Shown here one piece after another: positions 6,301 through 63,042 of a stretch of 64,000 nt of DNA. Origin of the DNA: a virus. Lineage: Duplodnaviria; Caudoviricetes. Under the pieces are notes generated by a model that had not been told where the DNA came from, ran no database searches, and saw only the letters and a program-made list of their open reading frames with translations. The position numbers were made by a program, and so were the translations under genes. How positions within the stretch are numbered: the first letter of the stretch is position 1; every line of letters starts with the position of its first letter. The stretch is from the IMG/VR virus record IMGVR_UViG_3300037484_000435, positions 288,001-352,000 of that record, one strand, 5' to 3'.

Positions 6301-9300
6301 CTTCCTTTACAGTGTCAGGTGTAGTAGGTTCTTTAGGAGCAACGCCCGCAAACTCGTCATACATTGCTTTAATTGCTATGTCAACTCCCCCTGTTTTATA
6401 GGCCTCCCCAGCACCTTTAGCCTCAAAGTATCTTTGGTTCCACTCAACTCGCTCTGGAGATTTCGCCCGCTCAGAAGCAGCTTGTTCTTTCTGTGTCCGT
6501 CCTTTATCTAATCCTTTATCTCTTCTCCATTTTATAAATACATCTTCATGTTCTTTTCCCCACGCCTTTTTATGTTTACGTTTCCATTCTTTCTCCTCAT
6601 CGGTTTCCACCCCTTGGCTAATATCCTCGTAAGCCTGATTGACTGCTTGAAAACGCTTGACAGCCTCATCCGGAAGAACCCCTTGAGCAACAAGTTTATC
6701 TGGGTGTGTTTGCTTAACTTGTCTCCTATAAGCCTTCTTGATCTCCTCTGGAGATGCATTTCGTTCTATCCCAAGTATCTCGTGCGGTGTTTGGCCCCCT
6801 ACTGCCCCATCCCACGAAGCACTTTCACTAAAACCACGACCACCCACATCTCTTACTTCTCTTTCCATATCCCTTAAACGTAGCATTGTTGGTGTGACAA
6901 CTTGTTCAGGAAAACTTTGCTTCATTTCTCTCTGGGCCCTACGTTCTGCACGTAGCTTTGCTCGGTCCTCTTTTCTAGGAGCAACTAATTCTGGGTATCT
7001 AGCACGGGTCTGTTCGGTAGATTTTCTAATAGCCTCAGCGAAATTAGGCGCATAACTTTCCATTCTATCAGCCATACTTTCCATCATACCCACAGTTTGT
7101 GGTTTTATATCTGTTCCCACACGTGTTATCTTATTTAAACCTTCGTCCCCAACAGTTTCTCTAAATTGCTTGAACAAACGCATACCCGCCGTCATCTTTT
7201 GTTCTGGCGATAAAGTAGGAGAGACAGTAAAACCTCTGAAAACACCGCCCCGCTCGCCCAACTTGTAGGACAAACTTGCCGCTTTCTCATGTTGAGGTGT
7301 AAACAAATCAAGTACATCGTAGCCACCCTCACGGCCCTTTGACGATATTTCCTTGTGATACCAGTCTGGGGCGGGCCTTCTCTGCACAGGTGTTTCGACC
7401 CCACCAAACATACCCTTTAGAGAACCAAGTAAACTAGCACTCTCGCTAAAGTTATCCTTATTAATTACAGGTGCGGACTCCCTCTTACGATTAAGTAACA
7501 TATAAGGATAGGCGTAACGTGCTTGGTTTAATGCTGGTGGTGTAAATCCCTTTTGGTCTTCTTCATCCTTTAAAACCTTTGGCTGTCCTTCTAAAACAGA
7601 CTCGAAAGCCGCTTGAACTGCCCCAGTTCTTTGTTGTGGTTGAGCAGTAGTTAGGGTGGGGACTTGTAAAGTTTCCTCGCCCACCGATTGAATCATACGT
7701 TCCTTTGCAGTTTGAATAAGTCTTCTATCTTTCTCTATAAGCTGCGGACTTTTAAGAATTCGATCAAGAATGGCGGCTCCCCCGCGAACCATATTCTGCA
7801 TACCTGGGTCGGTTATCTTTTCTCCAAATGCGACTTTAGATTGAATATACCTTATTATCATCTCTTCAATCTTATCTTGATATTCTTGTTTCTTATCCTT
7901 ATTTGAATAACTCCCCCCAGGACCAAATTCGGGAAGACTGGTATAAGCCTGCACTTCTTTTAATATACGCGAGTTGGGCGCAAAGTGTAAACGTTTATAA
8001 ATATCTTCTGTTGTTTCTCCCAAAGGTTTCTTATCTACTTGTGCGTTACGTAAAACTTTTGCCACAGGGTGCAGGCCCGCTTCATGCGCAACACTCAACC
8101 ACGTAGGAACGTCATACCCAGATTCACGCATTTGCCCGTTTTCTAAATCAAAACGGCTTCCTTTTCTAGATCCAGTAGAAACCATGGCTGCAGAACCCAC
8201 ACCACCATAAGTGCCTTTCTGTGCTGATATGCCACGAGTTGTTAAATAACCAGTTGCTGTTGGGACTTTCCCAATATCAGGATCGTCTGTGAATGAGAGC
8301 AATCCTCCCTCAGTATTATATACTCGGTCAGCCTTAAACCCTTTAGGGGCAAGATATTCCCAAGCTTCTCTATTCAACGAGGGCTTAATTGTGTTAGCAA
8401 TATTCATGGCCTGCTGCCCAAGATCTGCCAATGGGGGTTCCGTTATTTTAGTAGGTTGTCCACTCGGAGCCGTGGTAGGTGCTGGTAAAACAAAAGGAAT
8501 AATATTAGGAGATCCAGTGGGAATTGTTGCTGTTACTGGGGTCTCTGATATAATATTACGAGCGGGCTTAACTGGAGGACCCACTACTGTAGAAGTAGCA
8601 GCGTAGACTTGTCCTGCTTGATAACTCCCTGTGGATTCGATAGCAGATTGAGCAGTGCCTCTTGATACTTCTGGTGGTGTAGACGGCACCGCAGAAGAAC
8701 CTCCACCACGTTCATCCTTACTGGTTCCCGTTCCCTTATCCCCACACAAACACTTTTGTATAGTAAGTAATGTTTCGGATATTTTATTCAAAAGTTTGGA
8801 TTTATCTAGGCTCTCCTTCATAGCTAAATCCATAACCCTGACCATTTCTCTACCTTGAGCCGACTTAATGCCTGCATCATCGGCCTTGCTCATAAGGTCC
8901 CTCATTTCTCCGCCTTCAGGCCCTAACCCTTTTAAATAAATCTGTTCTTGTTTTAGGTCCATCGCTGGTTGATAATTAACAACACGCCACATCTCTCTGC
9001 CCTGCGACGATCTAACCCCGTGCTCTGAGGCCATCTTCATATTTTCAGCTTCGTTTAAAGCAGACATTTCTGCTACAGGATTTCCTTCTGCGCGTTTTCT
9101 TATCCCAGATAACCACTCGGCTTCTTCTGCCCCAGCCATCGGTTTCAATTGCCCAAACATACTCCCGCCCAGTATGCCAGGCGTTGTTTCAGAACCATAA
9201 ACATTCTTCAAAATCCAAGGGTCTACACCAGCACCGCCACGGGCGGTAGACGCTAAACCTTGCTGCAAAGATTGCTCTTTCCACTTCTCTACGTATTTTT

Positions 9301-12300
9301 GATAAACTGTATCTGATGTTGTATCAGTTACACTAACATTCCTGCCCACATTTATATCTGTCCAATCTTTCCTTTCATTAATGGATTTTAACTGGGCTTC
9401 TTCTTGTTTTTTTCTTACTTCTTCTGTTGTGAAATTATTAGTTGTTGTTGTCGAGGTTGACGAAGTAGCCCCGTAAGTGGTCTGGCCCAATACACCTGCC
9501 TGTAATTGTGCCAACATATCTTTGGCGTAACCTGTAGGATCCATTACTTGTTTAAAAGCGGCCTTTTGGTCTTCAGTTAGGTCTTTTGTACTTCCAGTAA
9601 GAGCTTCTTGAAGATTTCTGATCGCATCTACAATAGGAACCCAAGTGAATCTTGCAGTTTGTGCTGAATCCTCCACTTTTATAGCCTGCTTGAGGATATT
9701 GGACATTTGTTTAAACTCTGAGAGGGACTCAAACCCACGACGTGTAGCAACCCCACCTCTGTTATCAACTATATCCGCAGCCTTCTCCATATCTTCCTTA
9801 AGTTTAGATTTCATAGGTGCAAACGTCTTTACGAGATCAGGAAACTGACCCCCATACATAACTTCAGTTTCTTCTATCGTCTTTTCTGCTTCTTGTGCAA
9901 CCCCTTTTTGTCGTTCAAATTTTTGATCTTCGCGTTTTTGTAAGTAATTAATCTGCTCTTCTTTTGCAGTCCACGTTATACGTTCTTTTTGTGCTCGATA
10001 CTCCCCAGGTTTAATTTCACCAGACCGATTCTTCGCGTCTAAGGCAGCCAACTCCTGTGCTTCCTTGCTTCCTTGACGAAAAGCCACCGGTACTTTTTCC
10101 GGGTATTCCCTGTCGAATTCTTCATAGTCTGAGCTTTGGGTACGGTAATCTGCCCCCATACCCGGCATAATTACATTCTTCCCACCTATAGTTTCCATCC
10201 TAGCCCGCTGAACTGAAGATGGGTGTTTACCCATCTCTGTGTCCATACGAACCGTGTCTAGACCCCAGCGAGTGCGTGCCATAACTTCTAGTTGCACTGC
10301 GAGTTGCTCAAATTTCTGGGCAACTTGTGCTACCTTTCCTAACATATTAATTTTCTCAATAAGGGGTTCGAGTGCTTTACGGGCCTCCTCAGCAGACCCC
10401 TTGAATACAGTAGACGCCTTTCCAAAAATTTCTGCTTGCGCCAGATACTTTTCTTGTTCCTTGCCTGTTGTGATACCGCCCATAAGTCTGGCTTCAACTT
10501 CTTTCTGCTGAAAAGCCCCAGCTTTCTCAGCTAACGTATTCACCGTAGCGGTGCCCATATGTGCCTCAGCTGCTAGATTAGGAGCATACTTTGTGACAAC
10601 CTCCCTCGGGGTTAATTCGTGTTCAGCCTTAGTCTCTTGCCATTGATACTCAGCAACGCCCTTAGCTGCTCCCGCCACAGGGGACTTTAGTTCTCGGGAA
10701 AGCATGTCTCCAGAGATTCTAGCTAGGTCTCCCATCGTCTGCTTTAACAGTTGCATCGATTCTTGTAATGCTTCCATCTTGGCCAAAGTAACAGCAAATT
10801 GCTGGGCTAAACCCTCAAGGGCTTTCATCTGCCCCTTGTATGCCTCGGTAAGTCCTTCATGTTTTTGCTGTAAAAAGGCTAGTTGGCGATCTAATTCTGC
10901 TACTGACTCCTGATCGCCCGAAGCCGCAGCCATAGTCCTCTTTGCTTGTGTTGCTTGAACTTCCCCCGCCGACCTGCCAAGTTGCTCTTTCCATTGTCTT
11001 TCCAATTCTTGGGCCTGCATCCCTGTTTCATACATCTTCGGAGCATGCTTCGCCATGAGTTGGCTAGGGCTCATCTCATAGGAGTACCATTGTGGGCGTT
11101 GGGTCTCCCCCATATACCCAGACTGAGTAAAAAGACTCGCGTTACGACTATCACTAATTTTTTGTCCGAGAGTTCCCACAGCAGTCGTAATATCCACGAT
11201 CATCTTTTTAGTTTCCATAACTATCTTGATTTCCCACAACTTCTGGGATGCTTTCTTGAGAGTTTCATCTAGGGTAGACACTTCTTGGGTCAATGCTTCA
11301 ATCTTAGCTTCAGCAGCTTTCATCCCTTTTTCATATTGATCCGCACGGTTCTTATCCCCACCAGGTTGTTTCTCCTGTGCATATAATGAAGCCATTTTCT
11401 GTAATTCAGATTTTGTAGCATCTATTTCACTAATAACCTGATTACGTCGCATTTGGGCTTCCTGAGCTTGTTTAGCTTCAGGACCACCAAACTTGGCAAA
11501 ATATTCTTGTGGATTGAGATCAAATTGAGTTCTTGGTCCTTCTTGAATCTGTGTGGGCATCGCTATCCCGGCCATAATACTACCAGGAGCCTGCTTTAGT
11601 GCAGATATATTAAATTCATGGGGAAGGGCTACTTCGAATTTAGCACGCATCCCTACCAACATATTATTCAGCTGCTTAACAAAACCTTCGGCTAAAAGTT
11701 TTACAACCTTACTCTCTTCCGCCTTGAGTTCCCTGATTAGCTTATCTAGCTCCTCTTTTGTTTTAGTTGGAAGGTCTTCCTTGGCTAATTTCTCCTCAAG
11801 ATCTTTCAACATTTCTGCAGTTCTCTCCAGATTATTCTTTATCCCCTGTAGATTAATGGAGCGACCCGCTTCTAGGTCACGTTTAGTTTGCTTTAGTTGG
11901 TCTAACTCAGTATTCCACTTACTTTCGTTAGATGATGCCGCCGAATAGTTACTTTCTGCACTATTCAACTCATCAAATCTCTGCTTAGCCTCGTCTACCT
12001 TCTTTTTAAAACTAACTGCCTCAGGAGTACCAAAGTTACCCTTGTATTTTTCACTGTACTCCCCAGATAGCTTAGACCACTCTTCACCTAGATTTCTATC
12101 TTTATATTTCGCCTTAACTTTTTCAAGTTCCTTAGCTGCTTTTTCTCTTTCAGGAACCGCAGATTTAAGAGCCTGCTCTGCCGCAGGGATACTCGTTTCA
12201 ATAGTTGTTTTTAACTTTTCTCGTTGGCTAGTAGTAAGCTCCGCTTCTTTAGGTAACTTGTTTACCCGACTCTGCTCGTTTGCGACAGCTTCTCTCGCTA

Positions 12301-48887: not shown

Positions 48888-49820
48888 TTAAATCTCTGTC
48901 TCCTCATCACTTTCTGAATTACCTTTGCCAAATATCTTTTTGAGCCAACGTCGAATTCTAAGAAATCTAAACCACTTTCTCTTTTCCATTTTTTCTTCTA
49001 CAATTACCTCAGCATCAATAGGCTCTATCTCCTTAACAACCACAACCAAAGGTGGCACCTCAGTAGTTTCTCTTTCTTCAAACAAGTACGTGTAGTTACG
49101 CATTTGTTCTTTGTAGAGCTCTGTTGCATGTTGGTATAAACGTAAGTCTAGTTGATTGCGGTCCTCAATTAACTTAATTACTCCTTTTGGTAATTCTTCC
49201 TTAGTTAATCTGTCAGAAACATTAACCATAGGGAGGTTAACTTCCGGCCACCCTAATTTATGTGAACAAATTTTTATAAAACTCGGTAACTCCTCATACA
49301 AACTGAAAAAGGTAAAGGCATCTGATAGACGGGCTTTAGCATAAGCAAACATCAATTTTTTACTACCCGCCCGTAAAAAAGAGGAAAGAACTTGCGTTTG
49401 AAAATCAGACATGCCCATCTCATACACCATATCCTCACTACGCAAAATTTCCTCTAGTGAAAACTGTAGAGCTTTCTGGTGTAATGCATGATCCTCTCGG
49501 CCTCTCAAAAAATAATACTGAGAAATGACACGGTCAATGGGCTCACGAACCACTACATATTGATTTATAGTAATTTTTAAACGGCTATAAAAAGGGTCAC
49601 AAAGCCGGTAATGCCCCAATAAAGCCTTATAATTTCCAATTGTCCCCTGCTCAATAAGAGAAAGCACTTCTCTAGCTGTAGCTTTCTTGTAAGCGTCCCC
49701 ATATATACTCCCGAGTAACTCAGAGATGGAATTCCCCGCGGTTTTCGGCATGTGAAAAAATAATTGTAAATTGTTAGAGTTAAACTGCTTAGACACAAGA
49801 TTAGTAAAATTGGTTGGCAT
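48888..49820 (-). CDS. PAPS-dependent sulfotransferase family protein
   Basis: 5'-PSB motif FFHMPKTAGNS and 3'-PB motif VVVREPIDRVISQYYF, plus DF(N)FQT and NQLDLRLY motifs. The ATG at 49820 has an AGGAG RBS; the ORF track extends it to 49889. Confidence 0.85.
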   Translation of the reverse strand: MPTNFTNLVSKQFNSNNLQLFFHMPKTAGNSISELLGSIYGDAYKKATAREVLSLIEQGTIGNYKALLGHYRLCDPFYSRLKITINQYVVVREPIDRVISQYYFLRGREDHALHQKALQFSLEEILRSEDMVYEMGMSDFQTQVLSSFLRAGSKKLMFAYAKARLSDAFTFFSLYEELPSFIKICSHKLGWPEVNLPMVNVSDRLTKEELPKGVIKLIEDRNQLDLRLYQHATELYKEQMRNYTYLFEERETTEVPPLVVVVKEIEPIDAEVIVEEKMEKRKWFRFLRIRRWLKKIFGKGNSESDEETEI

Positions 49821-49923
49821 CTGCCCTCTCCTTGTATGATCCCCATCTACCCTTCCTTTAAAAGGTGGGATGATACTGGAGACCAACATAGATCCCCAGT
49901 ATCAGTTAAATTACAACCTTTAA

Positions 49924-51771: not shown

Positions 51772-52593
51772 TTAATTCCTATAGGTTTTTGTATCAAAAG
51801 TTATTTCAGCACGATACCTGTTTATCCGCTCCTGTTCATAAAAACCCCACTGTGGTAGGCCAGAAAGTCTTTTCTTCACGTTCTCAAAAAATATTGAAGT
51901 ATAGACATCATGGAGGGAGGAATCAAATATTTGGTTGTATAGGCCATTTTGAAGTGGTAAACCACTAGGAAGTAGATAGAGAGGACAACGTCGCATATGT
52001 AAGTTATCGTAGACCAAGTCCATCAAATCATCCCTTTCCCCTTTGTTGTTAGCAAATATCTGAACATTCCAATAAGCGTCTCTTATATCCCCACCACCCA
52101 ACTGTAATGGAGATTTTTTACCTGTCTGCATATCAACACATACTATAGGTAAGGCTGGAACATCCTCGTAAGGCCAAGAATCTATTACCGATACATAATT
52201 CCACTCATAATCAACTAAATAACTAGATAGGTCTGAGGAAGAAATTACTTGGCCTGTGATATAATTAACAGAATACCCCGAGGCAACTGTGGAACCATTA
52301 TAAACTCTTATAAGGTTCTGTTGTTCAGAACCAAACAGGCACGTCTCACCAACATAATCAAAATACAGCAAGCCCCGCCCTAATCCAGAGTAATCCGTAA
52401 AAGACCCATCGGGATTGGTAACCCGCCTTTTGAATGGGTGAAACCCTAAACCTTCATCGTAGCCCATGTCCCAAACACCGGTAGAAGCCTGAGTTAAGCT
52501 TTCTCCTGTAGAAATCTCAGAATAACGCGGACCTATCACTGTGTCCTTTATATATAGATAAACACTAATGTCTTCCTTTCTTGATAATTGCAT
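51772..52593 (-). CDS. Putative tail terminator / tail completion protein
   Basis: The C-terminal half (LPIVCVDMQTG..PLQLGGG..DAYWNVQIFANNKGERDDLMDLVYDNL) resembles terminator-type proteins, and the gene sits just before the tube gene. Confidence 0.55.
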   Translation of the reverse strand: MQLSRKEDISVYLYIKDTVIGPRYSEISTGESLTQASTGVWDMGYDEGLGFHPFKRRVTNPDGSFTDYSGLGRGLLYFDYVGETCLFGSEQQNLIRVYNGSTVASGYSVNYITGQVISSSDLSSYLVDYEWNYVSVIDSWPYEDVPALPIVCVDMQTGKKSPLQLGGGDIRDAYWNVQIFANNKGERDDLMDLVYDNLHMRRCPLYLLPSGLPLQNGLYNQIFDSSLHDVYTSIFFENVKKRLSGLPQWGFYEQERINRYRAEITFDTKTYRN

Positions 52594-53210
52594 TACAACC
52601 CTCTCTCAGCTTTATAATTAGCAATCGCCTCACCAACGATTCCCTCTATATCTACTCTATCCATAGCATTTTTCCCAAAAGGTATTGGCGACGCACCACT
52701 TGCTGGATGTTTATACCGAGAAAAGGGCCCAACAACATTCCAACCTTCCCGCTCCCAAGCACCTTTACTGATGAGAAAACCACCATAGTATACGGGTGGC
52801 ATTGGCTCACCCTTCTTCTTAAAATAAGTCTCTGGGTTTACAAAAGCATACTGCCCGCCTATTCCACGTATTAAATAGACGGCCCATAATATAGGGCTAG
52901 GATTGTGCTTCAGCTTCATATTGTCTTCTTTGAAACCAAGCGTTTCATCAGTACAGATACCTATCTCGATATTTCCGTCCTCTGTGACCTTTAAACTTTC
53001 ATCCCACGTTTGTTTAATATGAGAAACTACAAAATCCATATGATTTTTAATATTGGTTGGGTCATCCTGAGGAGATCTCTCTGAGAGGCTTTCAAACTCT
53101 TCCATGAAAGACGTAATAATCTGCTTACCGCCCGGACCATCCGACCTCATATAATCTCTGATAGATTCCCGTAATTCGTCACTTATCTTCTCTACTATCT
53201 CTTTACTCAC
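52593..53210 (-). CDS. Putative neck / tail completion protein
   Basis: Synteny between head-closure-like and terminator-like genes; translationally coupled at both ends. Confidence 0.45.
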   Translation of the reverse strand: MSKEIVEKISDELRESIRDYMRSDGPGGKQIITSFMEEFESLSERSPQDDPTNIKNHMDFVVSHIKQTWDESLKVTEDGNIEIGICTDETLGFKEDNMKLKHNPSPILWAVYLIRGIGGQYAFVNPETYFKKKGEPMPPVYYGGFLISKGAWEREGWNVVGPFSRYKHPASGASPIPFGKNAMDRVDIEGIVGEAIANYKAERGL

Positions 53211-53767
53211 CTCGCGGTCTCCTTCCCTTGCTCATAGGTTCTACAAACTATCTCTACAATACCATCAGTCTTTGTGCCCATAACTCTAATAATAGGAACC
53301 GAATTAGGCACAACCTTCACACCATCAACTAAAAAATACTTTGCATTTACGAAATCAGGATAATATCTGGAATCCGTTTTGATAATCAGAGCGTGTTGGC
53401 CTTCTTGGCCCACTGGAGTTATCGGTAAAGACTCGCCGTCCGCGATCTCCCAGTGGTAATTTGCTACTATACTTTTTTCTGTAGGAACACTTAACTTCCC
53501 CTCTCCCCGACAAATAGGACATACCTGTTTAAATGGGGTAGCTGTAACAGACCTTGAATAGGCGGTGCCCTCAAATAAAATTTTCGTGCCACTAAAGTTA
53601 CTAAAGGTCGCGGTAGAAGATCCAGATACAAAATCATGGAAACAATTAGGGCAGTCCTCCTCCAGAAGACTGCCCATACCTATCACGATAGGTCTACTCA
53701 AGTCCTTAACCAACTGTTTTTGGTCTTTAGTAAAATCTTTTAACAGTTGTGTAGGCACCAAAACCAT
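53207..53767 (-). CDS. Putative head closure protein with CxxC zinc motifs
   Basis: DCPNC...VCPICRGEG plus a beta-barrel-like C-terminus (YFLVDGVK); position in the head-tail joining cluster. Confidence 0.5.
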   Translation of the reverse strand: MVLVPTQLLKDFTKDQKQLVKDLSRPIVIGMGSLLEEDCPNCFHDFVSGSSTATFSNFSGTKILFEGTAYSRSVTATPFKQVCPICRGEGKLSVPTEKSIVANYHWEIADGESLPITPVGQEGQHALIIKTDSRYYPDFVNAKYFLVDGVKVVPNSVPIIRVMGTKTDGIVEIVCRTYEQGKETAR

Positions 53768-54351
53768 TACGCAACTCCTAGCCTATCTGACAATTCTATC
53801 AGACGTCTCTCCAGAAGATCTCTTACACGCTCTTGCCCAGCAATATTCCTAGCTAACTTTACGGCGTGTTTTATGAGCAATGCATTATTGCAGTTATCGA
53901 TAATCTTCTTTGTCTCCTCACTCATCTTTAGCCAAGCCAATTCTTTGGGTGTCATTTCACCCTCCATAGCTCTCTTGATGTTCTTCTTAGAAGTTTGTGT
54001 AGCACGTGTCTTCTGCTCTTTCCTTTTCAACCTGCTAACGTCGTCTTGACCAGAAACTACCTCGTCTGCTTTTTTCTTGGCCATAGCCCCTCTCTTAGGC
54101 CTAGGGCCCTCCGAAAAATCTAATTGCCAAATACCACGATCCCGAGCGTATTCACTTTCTACTTTCTCTAAGAAATCCTTAAATTGTTCCGGTGACCACT
54201 CAGAATGCTTTGCTTCGACAGCTTTCTTACTGCGCTTTGGTTCACAAAATCCCTCAAACACCTCCTCTAAATCTAGAGACCCTCCAGGTGGAATCTGGTG
54301 TTTCAATAAAATTTTGTAGCCTCCGCTAATGTTCCTTGCTATGTATGGCAT
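53767..54351 (-). CDS. Hypothetical head-completion-region protein
   Basis: Clean 194-aa ORF with GGAGG RBS, coupled to 53207-53767; basic middle region and helical C-terminus. Confidence 0.65.
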   Translation of the reverse strand: MPYIARNISGGYKILLKHQIPPGGSLDLEEVFEGFCEPKRSKKAVEAKHSEWSPEQFKDFLEKVESEYARDRGIWQLDFSEGPRPKRGAMAKKKADEVVSGQDDVSRLKRKEQKTRATQTSKKNIKRAMEGEMTPKELAWLKMSEETKKIIDNCNNALLIKHAVKLARNIAGQERVRDLLERRLIELSDRLGVA

Positions 54352-55900
54352 GATAATGTCCTCCTTTGCCTACCTGTGTTTCAGCACACGGAAATGTTAA
54401 ACAAAAATCTGTGTGCCCGGGAACGCTCTTATATGAAATTTCGCCCCCGTATGAAGTTACCAAATTTTTAACAATTGATAACCCTAAACCGTGATTAACC
54501 TTATTTTCCTCAGCTTTTGTGGACACATAGGGAACAAAAATTTGATCTCCTAATTCAGGGGGGACTCCCCTCCCATTATCCACAACATGCACCTCAATAC
54601 TGTGATTGACCTCCATTACAGCGACAGTGATCTTGGGCTTGTCGTGATCTATAGATTCAATAGCATTCGTGCAAAGATTTATAAGTAACTGCATAAAATC
54701 AGACGAATTTATACTAATTTTGCACTCAGACTCTTGTTCACTACTCAACACAAAGTCATCCTCTGATAAACATTTAAACTTATCAGTAATTCGTAATGTT
54801 TTCATCACGGTCCTAATCTCAGATACAACGTTGATTAAATGTGCCTCTTTTCTAGACTCTGCCTTGGTAAACTTTGATAAAGATTCTAAAACTGACATTG
54901 AATAATCTGCTCTACCCTCGGCGTCGGAAAGTAACTCAAAAACGTCTGCGATTTCCAAAGTTTCTGTCCACCCCTCCTCCTCAGTTCTTCCAGTAAAATG
55001 TGTCAACCACTCCTCGATTAATTCTACAGTGTTGATAATAGACTGCATAGGGGTACGTAACTCATGAGCAATACCAGCATTAAGTGCTCTAGCAATTTCT
55101 AGTAAATCTTGGATCTTAGCATTCTCTAATTGCATCACTTTATCTCTTTTCTCTCTAAGCTGTTCCTGTACTCGGGTGAATTCGCTTACATCCCTAGATA
55201 TATGTACCGCCCCAACCGTTTTCCCCTCTTTAGTAATAATTGGGTGCACACTCAATAGAAAGTCCCCTTTGAGGTTGTAGATATGGGCGTGGGCGGTGTG
55301 GGATTGACTATCTTGTAACAAAAGTGTGTGAGGACAAAACTTTGGAGGAGCAGTAGAATTATGTATAAGATGATAACATTTTCTACCAATTAAATTTGTA
55401 GGCTCACCACCCAAAGCCTGTGCCGCAGCTTTATTTATGCGGACTATATTAAAGTTAGTGTCCAAAAGCATTATGTGATCTGGTACTGCGTCAAACGTAC
55501 GCTCCCACTGTTTTTTGGCCTTTTGCATCTTTCGAAATACTTCTTCCAACTGGGCGGTTCTGGATACCACTTTGGCCTCTAAGGTATCTGTTAACTCTTT
55601 GTTGTCTCTTTCGTAAGATATTACCCGTTCTATTAATTTATGTATCTCTACCAAAGACCATAGAAAAAAACTTGAAACAACCAAAGAAAAAATCTCATTA
55701 TAAAATGGCCAAGGGTCGACACCCAACCAATAAAAAGACAGAATGCGACGTATAAGCATTAGGGACAAAGGGATTAATAGAATAAGCCAAGTAGACCTAG
55801 AACACGGAGTCCTAGACAAGGAGACGGTATACCCAACTACAACAAGTTGAATTACAATGGAAACGATGATTACGACTTCCATTAGCATCATCAGCCCCAC
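54326..55900 (-). CDS. Membrane-bound PAS-domain sensor histidine kinase
   Basis: About 3 N-terminal TM helices, a coiled coil, PAS (WERTFDAVPDHIMLLD..NIVRINKA...PPKFCPH...VHISRDVS), H box AGIAHELRTP, N box LINLCTNAIES, G1 DNGRG, F box IFVPYVSTK and G2 GLGLSIV. Confidence 0.95.
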   Translation of the reverse strand: MGLMMLMEVVIIVSIVIQLVVVGYTVSLSRTPCSRSTWLILLIPLSLMLIRRILSFYWLGVDPWPFYNEIFSLVVSSFFLWSLVEIHKLIERVISYERDNKELTDTLEAKVVSRTAQLEEVFRKMQKAKKQWERTFDAVPDHIMLLDTNFNIVRINKAAAQALGGEPTNLIGRKCYHLIHNSTAPPKFCPHTLLLQDSQSHTAHAHIYNLKGDFLLSVHPIITKEGKTVGAVHISRDVSEFTRVQEQLREKRDKVMQLENAKIQDLLEIARALNAGIAHELRTPMQSIINTVELIEEWLTHFTGRTEEEGWTETLEIADVFELLSDAEGRADYSMSVLESLSKFTKAESRKEAHLINVVSEIRTVMKTLRITDKFKCLSEDDFVLSSEQESECKISINSSDFMQLLINLCTNAIESIDHDKPKITVAVMEVNHSIEVHVVDNGRGVPPELGDQIFVPYVSTKAEENKVNHGLGLSIVKNLVTSYGGEISYKSVPGHTDFCLTFPCAETQVGKGGHYHAIHSKEH

Positions 55901-55902
55901 TT

Positions 55903-56313
55903 TTATTCATCAAACAAAGAGATGTCCCTCTTTATCATGTCATCTAGGATACGAGCCAATTCTCTAATCCTGACGGGCTTTTTAACCAAAATGGTAAATA
56001 AACATTTTTCTCGATCTTCACGAGTAGCTTGGGCTGCCTGTTGATAAAGGTCAACATTATCCTCCAGACCAGTTATAAAAGCGATCGGAATATCACTATT
56101 CATATTATTTCGTATATAACTGTGCACTTCCATACCACTGGGCGAGGGACCGTTGAGGCGAATGTCGAGAATAACTAGGTCAATACTAGTGTTTTGCAAC
56201 ATCCCAATCGCCTCGGGAGCATGGTATACTTGAAAGACATTAAATTTCTTCCCAAAAGTTTTCTTCCATACTTTAGAAACTACTACATCATTTTCAACTA
56301 TCAATAGGTTCAT
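55903..56313 (-). CDS. Single-domain response regulator (receiver only)
   Basis: LIVEND acidic pocket, phospho-acceptor VILDIRL, FIT (Thr) and VKKP (Lys-Pro); no output domain. GGAGG RBS at the 3' end of the upstream endonuclease. Confidence 0.92.
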   Translation of the reverse strand: MNLLIVENDVVVSKVWKKTFGKKFNVFQVYHAPEAIGMLQNTSIDLVILDIRLNGPSPSGMEVHSYIRNNMNSDIPIAFITGLEDNVDLYQQAAQATREDREKCLFTILVKKPVRIRELARILDDMIKRDISLFDE

Positions 56314-56315
56314 AT

Positions 56316-57116
56316 TTAATGCACCTCCTCACTCAGTATTAGCACCTTCTTAAACAAGTCTTTTTTCCTATCCAAACGTGGGGTATCCAATTTAAGCATA
56401 TCCTTAATAAATAATAGTGAGCGAGTATGGCTGAGGCGGTATTTCCCACAACCATCACTATTGCAGACACTTGAAATGGTTTCAGCAGGATACCACCTAT
56501 CACAACATCCCTTTACAAAATTTAGAAAGTCTACATTCCCCCTGAAGGAAATTCTCCAATTTGGCTTACCGTCATTAGACAGACAACCATCACCATCAAA
56601 ATATCCAGTAATAAAGTATTTTAACAGGACGTCATCAGTGATATTGGGTGCCCGAAGAGTTAGTGATTTTTTAGGAGTAAGTGAATAATAATTATTTAAG
56701 TCCTCAAACCACTGACTAACGCCTGTAATCGCAAGAACCGCATTATCGTATCTTCTTCCATTTAAAGGTGTATTCCCAAACCTGACCGCCCCGCTATACC
56801 CACACGCTATTCGAAATTTCTCTAATTGTTGGTAATCAGTTCGTTGTAACATAAAAGAAACCACGAAACTTCTCTCGTACAAGCAACCGTCCGCAGCAAT
56901 AAAACCAGCCCAATAAGCTCGTTCGGGGTTTAAAACGCTAAAGTAATTATAATCTACGTCATATCTCCTACCTCTTCCCTTGTTAGATTCTCCTAACATA
57001 GATAACCGTGTTGTTACTGCATCTGTTGTTCTGCCGATCAGTTCCCCAATCTCTTTACAAGTGTGTGTTTTATACAATTCAACAATCGAACATTTTTCTT
57101 CTTCTGTCCACCTCAT
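56316..57116 (-). mobile_element. Free-standing LAGLIDADG homing endonuclease with one Myb/HTH-like repeat
   Basis: AYWAGFIAADG and FITGYFDGDG; MRWTEEEKCSI repeat. The ATG at 57116 has a GGAGG RBS; the track start is 57134. Confidence 0.9.
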
Positions 57117-57133
57117 TTTATCGTCCTCCCCCA

Positions 57134-57589
57134 CTACTTCCTACGCTGTTCTAAAATGTATTTAATGAGTTCAGCTTTGGTTCTTTCTAAATCTTTAATC
57201 GTAGCCACATCTTTCATGGACGACTCTAGTAATGTAAAACGTTTCTCAATCGCTGTAATCAGCTCGTGTTTGGTAACTTGGTCCCGATTTTCGGCCTCTA
57301 CCAATGATACCTTTCGACTATTCTCGTTAATACTGGTCTGCATTTTATCGGACACTAGATACAGTATTGGGATCATTACACTAAGTAAGAGTATTATACC
57401 TCCCACAAACCATTGAAAAAAAGACCATCTTTTCTGATCCCGAAGTTCTAATTCAGATTCAAACTTTTCGAATTTAGACGCCAGATTAATAGCAGTGGAA
57501 TCAGACGTCTGAGCCAATAAAGAGATTAATTCCTCTAAATCGGTTTGTATTTGTTCTAAACTAGGTTGATGTTGTTGTTCTTCTAACAT
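57134..57589 (-). CDS. Single-TM coiled-coil membrane protein in the lysis cassette (possible holin/antiholin)
   Basis: One TM (FFQWFVGGIILLLSVMIPILYLV) flanked by coiled coils; follows the spanin-like genes. The ATG at 57589 is chosen from the GGAGG upstream. Confidence 0.5.
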   Translation of the reverse strand: MLEEQQHQPSLEQIQTDLEELISLLAQTSDSTAINLASKFEKFESELELRDQKRWSFFQWFVGGIILLLSVMIPILYLVSDKMQTSINENSRKVSLVEAENRDQVTKHELITAIEKRFTLLESSMKDVATIKDLERTKAELIKYILEQRRK

Positions 57590-57606: not shown

Positions 57607-57984
57607 TTATTCCCAGAACCTGTACCAAGAATGTTTCTTCTGTGTTTCCCCCTGCTTACCAGAGTTTGTTGCGCCCTTATTATAGATTTCGAGCGTCTTT
57701 TCTACTTCAAGCCCCCAATTGGGCCATTTAGTTAATGCGGTACTGATCTTCTCAATATCCTCAAAGCTCCAGTAAGCTTTTCCATTCTTTAGATCAACCG
57801 TTGGCTCTTTAACCCAGTCAGTATCTGGGTATTTTTTCTTATCAAACTTTCCGTTATCCATTATAACTACTTTTGGCGGGCTAGGGATAGTTACTTGTTC
57901 CCTTACTGGAACATAAACGTATTTCACTGTCCCGCACCCAGATAGCAATAATACAAAAAACATTAGCAATAAAGTTTTTTTCAT
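57607..57984 (-). CDS. Lipoprotein, putative o-spanin (Rz1-like)
   Basis: MKKTLLLMFFVLLLSGC lipobox; Pro-rich N-terminal mature part; directly after an i-spanin-like gene. Confidence 0.65.
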   Translation of the reverse strand: MKKTLLLMFFVLLLSGCGTVKYVYVPVREQVTIPSPPKVVIMDNGKFDKKKYPDTDWVKEPTVDLKNGKAYWSFEDIEKISTALTKWPNWGLEVEKTLEIYNKGATNSGKQGETQKKHSWYRFWE

Positions 57985-57992
57985 AACCTCTC

Positions 57993-58328
57993 CTATCTTG
58001 GTGATACCATAAATAAGTTCTCGATGTTAAACTTAGTGCCCGAAACAACAGGTGGTTTCGGCTTTTGTTTGTAATACTCTTTCAATCTCCGAATATTTTC
58101 ATTCAAAAAAGAGTTGGAGCTTTCCAGTTTTATTGTCGCGGCTCTACACTCCTCAAGGCTTTTATTTAATTCAGAGATATTAATTTTCTGCTCAGTAATA
58201 GTGCTGTTCAAATCTCGTATCTCCATCTTTAATATAAAAACTCTTATGCCAAAGTAAGTTAGACCTCCGATAATAGCTAAGAATATCGCGGTATAAATGA
58301 ATTTTGCTATTGGGTCCATTACAAACAT
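57993..58328 (-). CDS. Putative i-spanin (Rz-like)
   Basis: N-terminal TM (FIYTAIFLAIIGGLTYFGIRVFIL) followed by a long coiled coil and a Pro-rich tail; lies between a peptidoglycan hydrolase and a lipoprotein. Confidence 0.65.
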   Translation of the reverse strand: MFVMDPIAKFIYTAIFLAIIGGLTYFGIRVFILKMEIRDLNSTITEQKINISELNKSLEECRAATIKLESSNSFLNENIRRLKEYYKQKPKPPVVSGTKFNIENLFMVSPR

Positions 58329-58340
58329 ATTATTAATCAC

Positions 58341-58874
58341 CTACAAAGCCAGAGTTTTTGTGCCTAATATCGCCTTATACCTCGTATCCCCTTTTATAAT
58401 GGTAGTCCTCTTAAAATATCGTGCACTCGAAGAAGCCTCCGCAAAAACCTTAGTTTCCTTTTTTATCTTCTTAGAGTAAGCCTCCTCTTCAACACTTTTC
58501 TTACGCCATGTTCCTACATGACTAGCAATCTTACCACCGTAGTTAAAGAACACTATTTTTGGGAAATCGCCAGCCTCAAACCCCTTTTCTGGGCCCTCAA
58601 TATTATTCTTACCCCAGTTACCATACCCCAACCACATTCTAAAGGCGGTTGTACGTTTACCCGGAAAATCTGGGGTAAAACCAGCATAGGTTTGACCGCT
58701 GCAATCGCCCCCGAGTAATCCCCAAAAACCGCCCCAAACATAAGTAGGAGCCAGTTTCTCCAGAAGTGTAAACCTTTGGTCGATGTTCTTTAATTTAACG
58801 TCGAGGCTAGGTGTGGTGACCACAGCGGTAACCACAAAACCTAAAAGAATTAACGTGGCGAATAGATTAGTCAT
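58341..58874 (-). CDS. NlpC/P60-family cell-wall peptidase with N-terminal signal/anchor (putative endolysin)
   Basis: PTYVWGG..GGDCSG (catalytic Cys), IVFF and SHVG (His), then F.EASSS. Hydrophobic N-terminus MTNLFATLILLGFVVTAVV. The ATG at 58874 overlaps the upstream stop, so it is preferred to the track start at 58967. Confidence 0.75.
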   Translation of the reverse strand: MTNLFATLILLGFVVTAVVTTPSLDVKLKNIDQRFTLLEKLAPTYVWGGFWGLLGGDCSGQTYAGFTPDFPGKRTTAFRMWLGYGNWGKNNIEGPEKGFEAGDFPKIVFFNYGGKIASHVGTWRKKSVEEEAYSKKIKKETKVFAEASSSARYFKRTTIIKGDTRYKAILGTKTLAL

Positions 58875-59176: not shown

Positions 59177-59560
59177 CTAACGTATACCTGCTGAAATAAT
59201 CATGGCCCCAGCCAACGCTAGGAAACCCCAAAATATATAGCAGGCCGCTTTTTCAATCGGAGTGCCTGCCTGTAATTTTTTATATGAAAAATACGGAAAA
59301 AACCACGATACCAAAGTAAGGAAAGCAACTTCTGAAAATACTCCCCATACAGTCACCCACATGGAAATATTAAGAGTCATATCTCGATTACTCACCAACT
59401 CTGGGTTCTGACTAAAATATGTTAGGGCAAAATATGCGAAGACGCACCACACTACTATTGGTATCCCGTTCACTATTCCAAAAAACAATTGTTTGTACCA
59501 AGGCCAATTAGGGTCTATGTCTATTATTGCACGACTACTTTCTTGCTTTTCTTCTTTCAT
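59177..59560 (-). CDS. Putative holin (about 3 TM helices)
   Basis: Small protein with three hydrophobic segments; first gene of the peptidase/spanin cluster; GGAGGAG RBS. Confidence 0.55.
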   Translation of the reverse strand: MKEEKQESSRAIIDIDPNWPWYKQLFFGIVNGIPIVVWCVFAYFALTYFSQNPELVSNRDMTLNISMWVTVWGVFSEVAFLTLVSWFFPYFSYKKLQAGTPIEKAACYIFWGFLALAGAMIISAGIR

Positions 59561-61937: not shown

Positions 61938-63023
61938 TTAGGGTGTGTACCTATCAATGATTCCCAAGGCTATGAATCGGGCATCGAGGCATGCGAAGCC
62001 TAACTTGGCCCACCCATAAAAGCCTTGTCTCTGACGTCTGTGTAGGTTAGGATCATCGAAGGCCTGATACTCTTGGCGGATCATCATAAGTAATGAAACG
62101 TCAGTCTGATCAAACCCGTAGATCTGTGTCTCGCCAGCAGTTACTAGGCTTCCATTTTCATCCAACACGTTACCATGGGTCAACGCATAGTCGTTGAATT
62201 TGTTGTCACTAGCATTACCAACGAACGGACCAAACTCAGAAGTTCTGTCATTGATATTAAACTTACCCCTGACACCCAAGCAGTTAACGACTCGGAAATT
62301 GATTCCCCAAATACTACCTAAACCAGCAGCAGTGAAGATCTCCCTACGAGTAATTGGATCCACATCGGTATCAGTATACTCTCTGATGTCTGCCATATCT
62401 TCAGGCGAGATCCAGAGAAGGCTAAGATTTCGTCTAGTTCTTTCCATACCAACGATCATACGGTTGATTAGTTCTTTGGAGAAATAACCAGCGGCTGCGT
62501 CACCAGCAGGGAGTTCATAAATTGGAGCAGGCCTTGGGGGAAGAATACCAGCACCTGTGAACGCTGTAGTAGCGGCAGGAATAATGGTTCTCCAACCAGC
62601 CTCTTCCTCATACTCTGCAATAGCCTTGGCTACAGCTTTCTGAGCTTGCTGAGGAATATCCAAACGGCCCTCTTCGGCGTACTTCAGCGGCCAATCTTTC
62701 GCAGCTTGAATCTGGAAAATTGGAATGCTTACTTCGTCCGCCCCGAGTTCCATCTGGTCTTGGGCAACATAACCCAGACTTGGAAGTGTCCAAATGGGGC
62801 TATCAAAATCATCTGCTATCGGAAAAGTTGGCTGTTGTCCTGGAGCCAACCTAATTACCTGAAAAAGGTCCCGCATATACGACTGCTCTTCGACGGCCTT
62901 AAGAATAGGGCCATTTAAAGAGGCAGCGAATGCCCTGTAAGCTCTGTAGCCTTCAGGGGTGTGCATGGCGGCGGTGGCCTTAAACAGTTCGACAGCTTTT
63001 TGCTCTCTTTCTTTTTCAGTCAT
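61938..63023 (-). CDS. Major capsid protein (HK97-fold, inferred)
   Basis: About 361 aa; follows scaffold and decoration genes. It contains the typical segments IPIFQIQAAKDWP, LLWISPEDMADIR, IWGINFRVV and RQRQGFYGWAKLGFACLD. GGAGGT RBS before ATG 63023. Confidence 0.8.
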   Translation of the reverse strand: MTEKEREQKAVELFKATAAMHTPEGYRAYRAFAASLNGPILKAVEEQSYMRDLFQVIRLAPGQQPTFPIADDFDSPIWTLPSLGYVAQDQMELGADEVSIPIFQIQAAKDWPLKYAEEGRLDIPQQAQKAVAKAIAEYEEEAGWRTIIPAATTAFTGAGILPPRPAPIYELPAGDAAAGYFSKELINRMIVGMERTRRNLSLLWISPEDMADIREYTDTDVDPITRREIFTAAGLGSIWGINFRVVNCLGVRGKFNINDRTSEFGPFVGNASDNKFNDYALTHGNVLDENGSLVTAGETQIYGFDQTDVSLLMMIRQEYQAFDDPNLHRRQRQGFYGWAKLGFACLDARFIALGIIDRYTP

Positions 63024-63042
63024 TGTAGTGCCTACCTCCACC

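Follow-up and report, generated by a model that had tools for sequence, protein, structure and literature searches.

Lysis timing sets the burst size and fitness of a phage, and so far only a few control mechanisms are known: holin clocks, dual-start antiholins, and the lysis inhibition of T4 or ICP1. In lysis inhibition, phage-encoded sensing delays lysis. The T4 holin T is an N-in, one-TM protein whose cytoplasmic and periplasmic parts are each bound by a small regulator, the antiholins RI and RIII, without any use of phosphorylation (PMC8385771, PMC11413866). In staphylococci and Bacillus, the two-component system LytSR has a membrane-embedded kinase thought to sense loss of membrane potential, and controls holin/antiholin-like proteins encoded next to it by inducing the holin-like lrgAB genes (PMC2996381). 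Stand-alone receivers are found in class I two-component pairs such as Thermotoga maritima HK853-RR468 (PDB 2C2A, 3DGE). ArcB of E. coli is a membrane-anchored kinase with almost no periplasmic loop and a cytoplasmic PAS domain whose two cysteines sense redox state (PMC3364231, PMC11620690). A histidine kinase carried in a phage genome is also known: AgrC of Clostridioides difficile phage phiCDHM1, which has evolved there after acquisition (PMC4124054).

We analyzed a locus of a 545-kb uncultured phage in which a sensor kinase (HK-A, HK), a stand-alone receiver (RR) and a small membrane protein (tm164) are encoded beside a predicted lysis cassette. Like HK853-RR468, the pair combines a HisKA H-box (HELRTP with the E-x-x-T phosphatase motif) and a HATPase_c domain carrying N, G1, F and G2 boxes with a receiver lacking an output domain, and the two genes are adjacent; HK853 was among the best solved-structure matches to the kinase core (E 4.4e-16). 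Different from HK853-RR468, the pair is encoded by a phage and inherited vertically within a phage clade, the kinase core is a separate lineage, the receiver has E-N-D instead of D-D and about 9 extra residues between T81 and K112, and a third, membrane protein always accompanies the pair. tm164 has the same topology as T4 holin T and sits beside a small cytoplasmic protein, but there is no sequence similarity, and a role as holin or antiholin would be conjecture. LytR is a LytTR DNA-binding regulator acting on transcription, whereas the receiver here has no DNA-binding part; LytS has a 5TM-Lyt sensor and a GAF domain, not TM-PAS, and LytSR is cellular, not viral. HK-A has the same layout as ArcB, with invariant C175 and C189, although equivalence of the Cys positions is only conjectural; ArcB is a tripartite hybrid kinase with receiver and Hpt domains, and HK-A has neither. 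phiCDHM1 has no phage-encoded regulator and its genes are 60-70% similar to host genes, whereas here kinase, receiver and membrane partner are all phage-encoded, lie in the lysis cassette, and have no close cellular relative. Literature searches, in a library lacking most subscription journals, found no description of a conserved kinase/receiver module in phage lysis cassettes.

The kinase-receiver pair and its neighborhood

The window is a stretch of 64,000 nucleotides, positions 288,001 to 352,000 of IMG/VR record IMGVR_UViG_3300037484_000435. An earlier note, made from the sequence alone, had described a complete two-component pair with all catalytic boxes intact, packed between lysis and head-tail joining genes. 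This observation was confirmed: both open reading frames are present at the stated coordinates on the minus strand. HK-A (54326-55900, minus strand) is 524 aa long from GTG 55900, but more likely about 520 aa from ATG 55891/55888 behind a GGGG Shine-Dalgarno-like run. Pfam hits above cut-off were HATPase_c (PF02518; 71.8 bits, cut-off 26.4), PAS_9 (40.5, 27), PAS_4 (39.7, 23.1) and HisKA (PF00512; 29.8, 26.9). Catalytic boxes were read from the sequence and a 15-sequence alignment. The H-box GIAH279ELRTP was invariant in 15 orthologues; the N-box lies around N408/N412, with N412 invariant; and G1 (D441-N-G-R-G445; D441-N-G-x-G445 across orthologues), F455 and G2 (G471-L-G-L474) were conserved in every full-length orthologue. 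The PAS domain, predicted to be cytoplasmic, has invariant C175, H180, P185-P186 and F188-C189-P190. The N-terminus has at least two, probably three, hydrophobic helices, with no extracytoplasmic loop longer than about 10 aa.

RR (55903-56313, minus strand) is a 136-aa receiver (Response_reg, PF00072; 47.7 bits, cut-off 30.2) with no other domain. The phospho-acceptor D50, T81 and K112-P113 were invariant in 19 orthologues (19-25 sequences). The description of the pair as fully intact needs one qualification. The acidic pocket reads E7-N8-D9, and alignment to AdeR places Asn where CheY has D13 of its Mg2+-holding pair (D12, D13). E7 was invariant, and the second position was Asn in all but two orthologues (Asp in P0137 and L132), which may weaken Mg2+ binding and phosphorylation. 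No named subfamily (ArcB, AtoS, NtrB, PhoR, WalK, LuxQ; ArcA, TorR, CheY-like and others) was reached with the NCBIfam equivalog models: the best HK hit was the LIC_12097 family (115.6 bits against 500), ArcB scored 72.8 against 838, and the best RR hit was TorR (31.4 against 275).

The pair lies in a 7.8-kb block from 59560 to 51772 in which no gap exceeds 17 nt; all genes described below are on the minus strand. The holin candidate (59177-59560) is a 127-aa protein with several hydrophobic helices and no family hit, so its function is inferred from these helices only. The endolysin candidate (58341-58874) has an N-terminal signal-anchor helix and an NlpC/P60-like domain with the motifs GGDCSGQ and HVG. 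This copy was not itself detected by Pfam, but it is 65% identical to the L007/L008 orthologues, and the orthologues in L008 and L049 passed the NLPC_P60 cut-off (27.8 and 26.3 bits, cut-off 23; L numbers denote contigs of relatives). It is followed by an i-spanin-like protein with an N-terminal TM helix and coiled coil (57993-58340; phrog_739, 2.7e-5) and an o-spanin-like lipoprotein with a signal peptide and an LLSGC lipobox (57607-57984; phrog_812, 1.2e-4). These PHROG hits are weak, but the topologies and the lipobox were kept in L047, L049, L132 and L133. The genes do look like a Gram-negative lysis cassette; the earlier note had spoken of a lysis cassette.

tm164 (57134-57589) is a 151-aa protein with a conserved acidic N-terminal coiled coil (probably cytoplasmic), one TM helix and a C-terminal coiled coil. 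The earlier note had listed it only as a holin candidate. It had no Pfam hit and one marginal PHROG match to a family of unknown function (phrog_33781, E 0.0076), and the XhlA model PF10779 did not hit it; no homology of tm164 or the RR to T, RI, RIII or XhlA was found. A LAGLIDADG homing endonuclease (56316-57134) is inserted between tm164 and the RR. It is polymorphic, being absent at this spot in L007, L008, L047 and L049, and is not part of the signalling unit.

The RR stop and the HK start are 2-11 nt apart. The HK stop (54326) overlaps the ATG (54351) of the next gene by 26 nt, as the earlier note had stated, but this overlap is specific to this genome because most orthologues lack the 9-aa C-terminal tail. 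That gene encodes p194 (53767-54351), a conserved protein of unknown fold. The downstream genes are neck/tail genes: p273 (51772-52593) is predicted to fold as a tail terminator (lambda gpU, T5 p142, T4 gp15 and others; Foldseek E from 4.5e-4, probability about 1.0). The model of p205 (pLDDT 76) had no PDB match.

Conservation in relatives with giant tape-measure genes

The earlier note had held that its reading would fail if the pair were absent from all relatives and nearly identical to a host chromosomal locus. We looked at both points, and neither was the case. The order tm164-RR-HK between the o-spanin and p194 was kept in L007, L008, L010, L012, L013, L014, L047, L049 and L133, and in three contigs listed without DNA. 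L132 keeps the spanin-tm164-receiver part, but the contig ends inside the receiver gene. Orthologues of HK-A were found at 42-88% identity, and identities across the syntenic loci went down to 38-44% for HK and 35-44% for RR. The module was found in every relative inspected that has a giant tape-measure gene (11,000-16,600 aa) and was missing only from one more distant relative, L048, with a 3,980-aa one. L048 has neither lysis genes nor the pair at this site, so the module is not needed for this virion design.

The trio stayed in place when homing endonucleases came and went and when the endolysin and holin were swapped: NlpC/P60 plus a 127-aa holin (holin candidate orthologues in L013, L014 and L049) versus SLT plus a 100-aa two-TM protein in L047 and L132 (SLT 65.5 bits in L047). 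The frames of tm164 and RR overlap by 4-35 nt in L007, L047 and L049, and those of RR and HK by 0-4 nt. The tm164 family has only 32 clusters in 1.84 billion proteins, and the two remote members that we looked up again precede a receiver.

Synonymous sites were saturated (pS 0.7-0.86, against pN 0.17-0.19) while the proteins stayed 71-91% identical, and dN/dS of RR was 0.023 for L007 versus L008. The best match of the kinase in 185,579 cellular species genomes was 31% identical or less, and the search with the receiver returned only the phage-contig family. In the kinase tree, 24 phage kinase cores formed one clade (97/98 support, stem length 2.0), with profile scores of 274-488 bits against 82 or less for the other kinases, and sensor domains are swapped between its lineages, which the earlier note had missed. 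All phage-type cores share Q-[SA]-N-[TSCV]-[LIY] at the DHp positions that, by analogy with HK853-RR468, face the receiver, and the genome's unrelated hybrid kinase differs there. This is a clear case of a two-component lineage that diversified inside viruses rather than being borrowed repeatedly from hosts.

The earlier note had also likened the style of the PAS motif to deltaproteobacterial and methanogen sensors, as a possible hint at the host. This hint is not supported. The PAS C-x4-H...C-P motif occurred in 47 of about 100 weak metagenomic kinase hits, including Chloroflexota, Sumerlaeota and Nitrospirota records, and the best genome matches were mostly Beta/Gammaproteobacteria and Acidobacteriota.

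Possible roles of the trio

Our preferred explanation, held tentatively and at somewhat less than even confidence, is a phage-lineage three-gene signalling unit that is built into the lysis cassette of a clade of huge phages with giant tape-measure genes and gates lysis timing through protein contacts of the phosphorylated receiver. These phages would thus probably sense something before or while they lyse. In this view, the kinase would autophosphorylate on H279 and pass the phosphate to D50, and its HE-x-x-T motif suggests that it can also take the phosphate back. In this genome the input would be read by a membrane-embedded N-terminus with no periplasmic domain plus the PAS domain with its invariant Cys/His motif; because this layout resembles ArcB, it may report the redox or energy state of the infected cell's membrane. 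In sister lineages the same kinase core carries dCache or REC-PAS-GAF sensors instead. As the receiver has no output domain, it must act by protein contact, most likely on the co-translated tm164 or on the adjacent holin/spanin machinery, and the most likely effect would be to advance or delay lysis. What the sequences show is limited to the intact domains, conserved synteny, purifying selection, the phage-only kinase clade and the tight operon-like block; autophosphorylation, phosphotransfer, hole formation by the holin candidate, the signal, the target and the link to lysis timing are inferred. The precedents of T4 and LytSR favor the reading, but adjacency to lysis genes could simply reflect a shared non-structural island between the head and neck genes, and since the block also holds neck genes, guilt by association points two ways. 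Because the trio survives a change of holin and endolysin type, a specific holin cannot be its conserved target. Complex prediction of the receiver with the N-terminal 58 residues of tm164 gave a score of 0.06 (mark 0.32), which counts neither for nor against binding. The interpretation of the earlier note was only partly supported: its genomic context held, whereas its suggestions of lysis timing, of host motility or chemotaxis signalling, and of late expression remain conjecture. A search of sequencing runs found the locus in one DNA run, a sediment metagenome that is probably the source sample, and listed no RNA run.

Two other roles are possible but unlikely, and we rate them about equally. 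The pair may be aimed at the host, with the kinase phosphorylating host response regulators or the receiver draining phosphate from host kinases, to silence or rewire envelope-stress, motility, chemotaxis or abortive-infection signalling late in infection. Single-domain receivers can act as hubs or sinks (PMC5964349), and AgrC of phiCDHM1 is thought to signal to the host's regulator (PMC4124054). The phage genome encodes three kinases but only one free receiver and no Hpt domain, so the kinase outputs could go elsewhere. However, kinase and receiver are co-inherited and translationally coupled, and the constant DHp contact positions fit a private pair better than adaptation to different hosts' regulators. 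The cellular and receiver searches above gave no sign of mimicry of a host pathway, and no CheA, CheW or FliM link was seen. Alternatively, the trio may control another late process, such as neck/tail joining, assembly of the exceptionally long tail, virion glycosylation, or late transcription through contact with a phage polymerase or sigma-like factor. The pair shares its uninterrupted block with four neck genes including the predicted tail terminator, the kinase stop overlaps p194, the module is restricted to the giant-tape-measure sub-clade, and single-domain receivers can regulate enzymes directly (PMC12802240). On the other hand, tm164 and, in this genome, the kinase are predicted membrane proteins, whereas head and tail assembly is cytoplasmic, and in every locus inspected the trio sits on the lysis side, directly after the spanins.

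That the pair is a recent or decaying passenger from a host chromosome, with no role for the phage, is very unlikely. PAS-HisKA-HATPase kinases and receivers are among the commonest bacterial genes and huge phages do pick up host genes, but the synteny, saturated synonymous sites, dN/dS far below 1, lack of close cellular copies and phage-only clade contradict it, and no frameshifts or lost catalytic residues were found.

A bolder version, possible but doubtful, is that these phages carry a private three-part lysis clock, in which a kinase core with swappable, lineage-specific sensors (membrane/PAS-Cys-His, dCache or REC-PAS-GAF) reads the state of the host or its surroundings and phosphorylates a dedicated receiver, which gates lysis by binding tm164. 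This would be the first virus-encoded two-component system shown to control a step of the viral life cycle post-translationally. A vertically inherited, phage-specific unit wired into the lysis cassette would add phosphorylation-based sensing to the known mechanisms of lysis control, and the exchange of sensor domains would show that huge phages, which invest heavily in each infection, make a late decision using information about the cell or its environment. With three small genes plus a lysis cassette, which can be expressed in a laboratory Gram-negative host, it is also a compact, testable system.

Other searches and signalling genes

Single-sequence scans of IMG/VR with the HK and the capsid protein found no relatives, and megablast of 14 kb against GenBank phages found none. 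Searching those phages with the HK by tblastn gave only matches of 27.5% identity or less, many in records that look like bacterial contigs. A search for p561 homologues gave 433 hits. Atlas look-ups of p194 and tm164 gave only unnamed viral clusters and generic coiled-coil look-alikes. No PADLOC defence family matched HK, RR, tm164, p194, the holin candidate or p98. The absence of an Hpt domain in the genome makes a multi-step phosphorelay through Hpt unlikely. Two further kinases and a PAS-only protein, not mentioned in the earlier note, were found elsewhere in the genome. Promoter and terminator consensus scans were at background level, apart from one strong terminator located after the capsid gene block (61653-61630).

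Coding content and genomic surroundings of the kinase and the receiver

To examine whether the two-component genes described in the earlier note were intact, the ORFs of the window and their domains were analyzed. The window covers bases 288001-352000 of the phage record, which is 545,322 bp long, and its first 145 bases (C1:1-145) recur exactly at its end (545178-545322), so the assembly closes into a circle, although IMG/VR lists the record as linear. All long ORFs in the window are on the minus strand. ORF 54326-55900 encodes a protein of 524 aa (HK-A) when counted from GTG, but a GGGG run precedes ATG codons 9-12 nt further in, and the orthologues start there. Pfam search gave HATPase_c (71.8 bits), PAS_9/PAS_4 (about 40 bits) and HisKA (29.8 bits), all above cut-off, and the H, N, G1, F and G2 boxes were all present and conserved. 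The N-terminal 90 residues hold two to three hydrophobic helices joined by loops of about 10 residues or less, thus there is no periplasmic sensor domain.

ORF 55903-56313 encodes a 136-aa receiver (RR; 47.7 bits) and nothing else. D50, T81 and K112-P113 were invariant. The acidic pocket reads E7-N8-D9, in which Asn occupies the position of CheY D13, and we therefore consider the receiver probably, but not certainly, phosphorylatable. The observation of the earlier note, that of a complete and tightly packed kinase-receiver pair, was confirmed. The packing that it described is correct, but the 26-nt overlap of the kinase stop with the next gene is peculiar to this genome, because most orthologues lack the 9-residue C-terminal tail of the kinase.

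Reading down the minus strand, a capsid-like protein (61938-63041; phrog_2522, 1e-8) is followed by a strong terminator-like hairpin and two homing endonucleases. Next come a 127-aa multi-helix membrane protein that is the holin candidate (59177-59560), a 98-aa soluble protein, and a signal-anchored NlpC/P60-like protein (58341-58874) with GGDCSGQ and HVG motifs, whose orthologues in the relatives L008 and L049 pass the Pfam cut-off (handles beginning with L denote relatives of this phage and their contigs). These are followed by an i-spanin-like protein with a TM helix plus coiled coil, an o-spanin-like lipoprotein with an LLSGC lipobox, the membrane protein tm164 (57134-57589), a LAGLIDADG endonuclease (56316-57134), the RR and the HK. 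The endonuclease sits exactly between tm164 and the receiver, where relatives have overlapping stop and start codons (L007 9445-9448, L008, L047 and L049). It has no intergenic leader of its own, and its 3' end carries the GAGGAGG ribosome-binding site of the receiver.

Downstream of the kinase lie p194, p186, p205 and p273. The conserved neck-block protein p186 (53207-53767, minus strand) has two CxxC pairs (CPNC and CPIC) that suggest a zinc ribbon, but only sub-threshold zinc-ribbon hits were found in Pfam. A structural model of p273 (51772-52593, minus strand; pLDDT 68) matched tail terminator proteins almost exclusively, namely lambda gpU, T5 p142, T4 gp15 and pyocin collar. The protein is about twice the length of typical terminators (130-160 aa) and only about 145 residues aligned, so it carries extra, unassigned parts. 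From 59560 to 51772, no intergenic gap exceeds 17 nt. After a 162-nt gap come the 90%-conserved p561, a sulfotransferase, p91, p235 and p368, and then a single 14,711-aa ORF (395-44530, minus strand) that follows the tail-chaperone-like genes and is read as a tape-measure protein; a distant homologue of 3,980 aa carries Pfam PhageMin_Tail. The sulfotransferase gene (48888-49889, minus strand; Pfam Sulfotransfer_2; phrog_3347) lies between p561 and the tail-chaperone-like genes. It is present in some relatives (L007 15953-16894), absent in others (L047 and L049), and moved in one contig. The placement of the pair between a lysis cassette and head-tail joining genes, as proposed in the earlier note, is therefore supported. 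The spanin pair also indicates a host with an outer membrane.

Conservation of the three-gene unit

We next tested whether the pair was a passenger, and the result indicated that it was not. The HK has 14 close relatives at 42-88% identity, after which the matches fall to about 30% identity or cover only part of the protein. The receiver search returned 15 relatives at 42-88% identity, all from metagenomic contigs of this family, and nothing else. A scan of one genome from each of 185,579 prokaryote species found nothing above 31% identity. Apart from one more distant relative, the order spanins-tm164-RR-HK-p194-p186-p205-p273-p561 was kept in every relative whose context could be seen: L007/L010/L011, L008 and L012 (HK about 72% identical), L013, L014, L047, L049 and L133, plus three further contigs. 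L132 keeps the spanin-tm164-receiver part, but the contig ends inside the receiver gene. Where the tape-measure gene is visible in these relatives, it encodes 11,249-16,603 aa. The more distant relative (L048; p561 43% identical, tape-measure gene 3,980 aa) has no lysis genes and no pair at this site, thus the module marks a sub-clade.

The unit was also kept when its neighbours changed. In L047 (2530-4986) and L132 (1150-2599), the signal-anchored NlpC/P60 endolysin candidate and the 127-aa holin candidate are replaced together by a soluble SLT transglycosylase and a 100-aa two-helix protein, yet the spanins and the trio remain, which is a clean example of holin and endolysin swapping as one unit. 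The endonuclease between tm164 and the RR is present here and in one relative, and absent in the others. Between the window and L007/L008, synonymous differences were saturated (pS 0.80-0.86) while pN was 0.17-0.19, and for the closer pair L007/L008 the dN/dS of the receiver was 0.023. These values match those of the flanking lysis and neck genes.

The third gene, tm164, encodes a conserved acidic N-terminal coiled coil (motif L..L..L.AQ.SDS.A.NL..K.EKFE), one TM helix preceded by Arg/Lys residues, and a less conserved C-terminal coiled coil. The positive-inside rule places the N-terminus in the cytoplasm. The gene overlaps the start of the receiver gene in L007, L047, L049 and L132. A profile search of 1.84 billion proteins found only 32 clusters, and the two remote members that could be placed (profile E 1e-12 and 2e-9) again lie between an o-spanin-like lipoprotein and a receiver. 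The conserved unit is therefore a trio instead of a pair.

Possible function and comparison with known systems

The analysis itself established that the catalytic apparatus is intact, that the genes have been inherited vertically under purifying selection, that they are tightly coupled physically to lysis genes, and that the receiver lacks an output domain. It is only inferred from these that the kinase phosphorylates D50, that the phosphorylated receiver acts by contact, most plausibly on tm164 or the neighbouring lysis proteins, and that the result is a change in lysis timing. The interpretation in the earlier note is supported only in part: the genomic context that it described holds, whereas its proposals that the sensor may tune lysis timing or rewire host signalling remain hypotheses. 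The layout of HK-A, a membrane anchor without a periplasmic domain plus a cytoplasmic PAS domain with two invariant cysteines, recalls ArcB, whose PAS cysteines respond to redox state (PMC3364231, PMC11620690). Holins fire on loss of membrane energisation. LytSR is thought to sense that loss and to control the holin-like LrgAB (PMC2996381), and T4 already shows that a phage can hold back lysis through small proteins bound to each side of a one-TM holin (PMC8385771).

We regard control of lysis timing as the leading but tentative reading. Signalling directed at the host and control of another late process are each less likely, and to about the same degree, while the passenger idea is very improbable; these readings do not together exhaust the possibilities.

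By domain tests, the two proteins belong to the two-component superfamily, but they reached no curated subfamily cut-off and matched no defence-system model. tm164 had no significant family hit, and the XhlA model did not match it. Among the phage examples examined, phiCDHM1 carries a kinase without a regulator, and its genes are close to host genes (PMC4124054). A survey of 224 jumbo phages mentions receivers only as a divergent type never linked to kinases (PMC7824862). No description of a conserved kinase-receiver module in a phage lysis cassette was found in the full-text literature searched.

Kinase cores, sensor domains and further signalling genes

To place the kinase among its relatives, we searched with a profile of the HK-A core (DHp plus catalytic domain). 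It scored 274-488 bits on 25 kinases, the HK-A orthologues and related kinases, and every one of these whose context was inspected lies on a huge-phage contig. It scored 82 bits or less on all other kinases sampled, including an unrelated hybrid kinase of this genome. In a maximum-likelihood tree, the 24 full-length cores formed one clade (97/98 support) on a stem of 2.0 substitutions per site, read as a phage-only kinase lineage with swapped sensors, although most of the sequences labelled as cellular in this comparison were unnamed metagenome proteins. The kinase occupying the syntenic slot carries different sensors in different lineages: TM-PAS in the window, L007, L008 and L047; dCache-PAS-PAS-GAF in L013 (1,044 aa); REC-PAS-PAS-GAF in L049 (841 aa) and L014 (956 aa); and a shorter REC-GAF form in L133 (707 aa). 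At the DHp positions that face the receiver in HK853-RR468, assigned here by analogy, all phage-type cores read Q-[SA]-N-[TSCV]-[LIY]. This fits one shared receiver for several inputs, which remains an inference.

Further signalling genes were found elsewhere in this genome, outside the window. HK-B (884 aa; C1:31186-33840, plus strand) is a paralogue 43% identical in the core, with a TM segment, a periplasmic domain, 2 PAS domains and a phage-type kinase core with a Cys-rich insert between the DHp helices. A three-PAS protein with no output domain (394119-395279, plus strand) shares the Cys/His motif of HK-A in its first PAS, and the unrelated hybrid (402963-404513, plus strand) combines PAS, kinase and receiver domains. 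The genome has no Hpt domain. In the genome of a close relative (L009, a 647-kb contig, ERZ28594402 scaffold_3), a 268-aa ion-channel-like gene (8652-9458; Ion_trans, RCK) lies just upstream of a REC-PAS-GAF kinase with the phage-type core.
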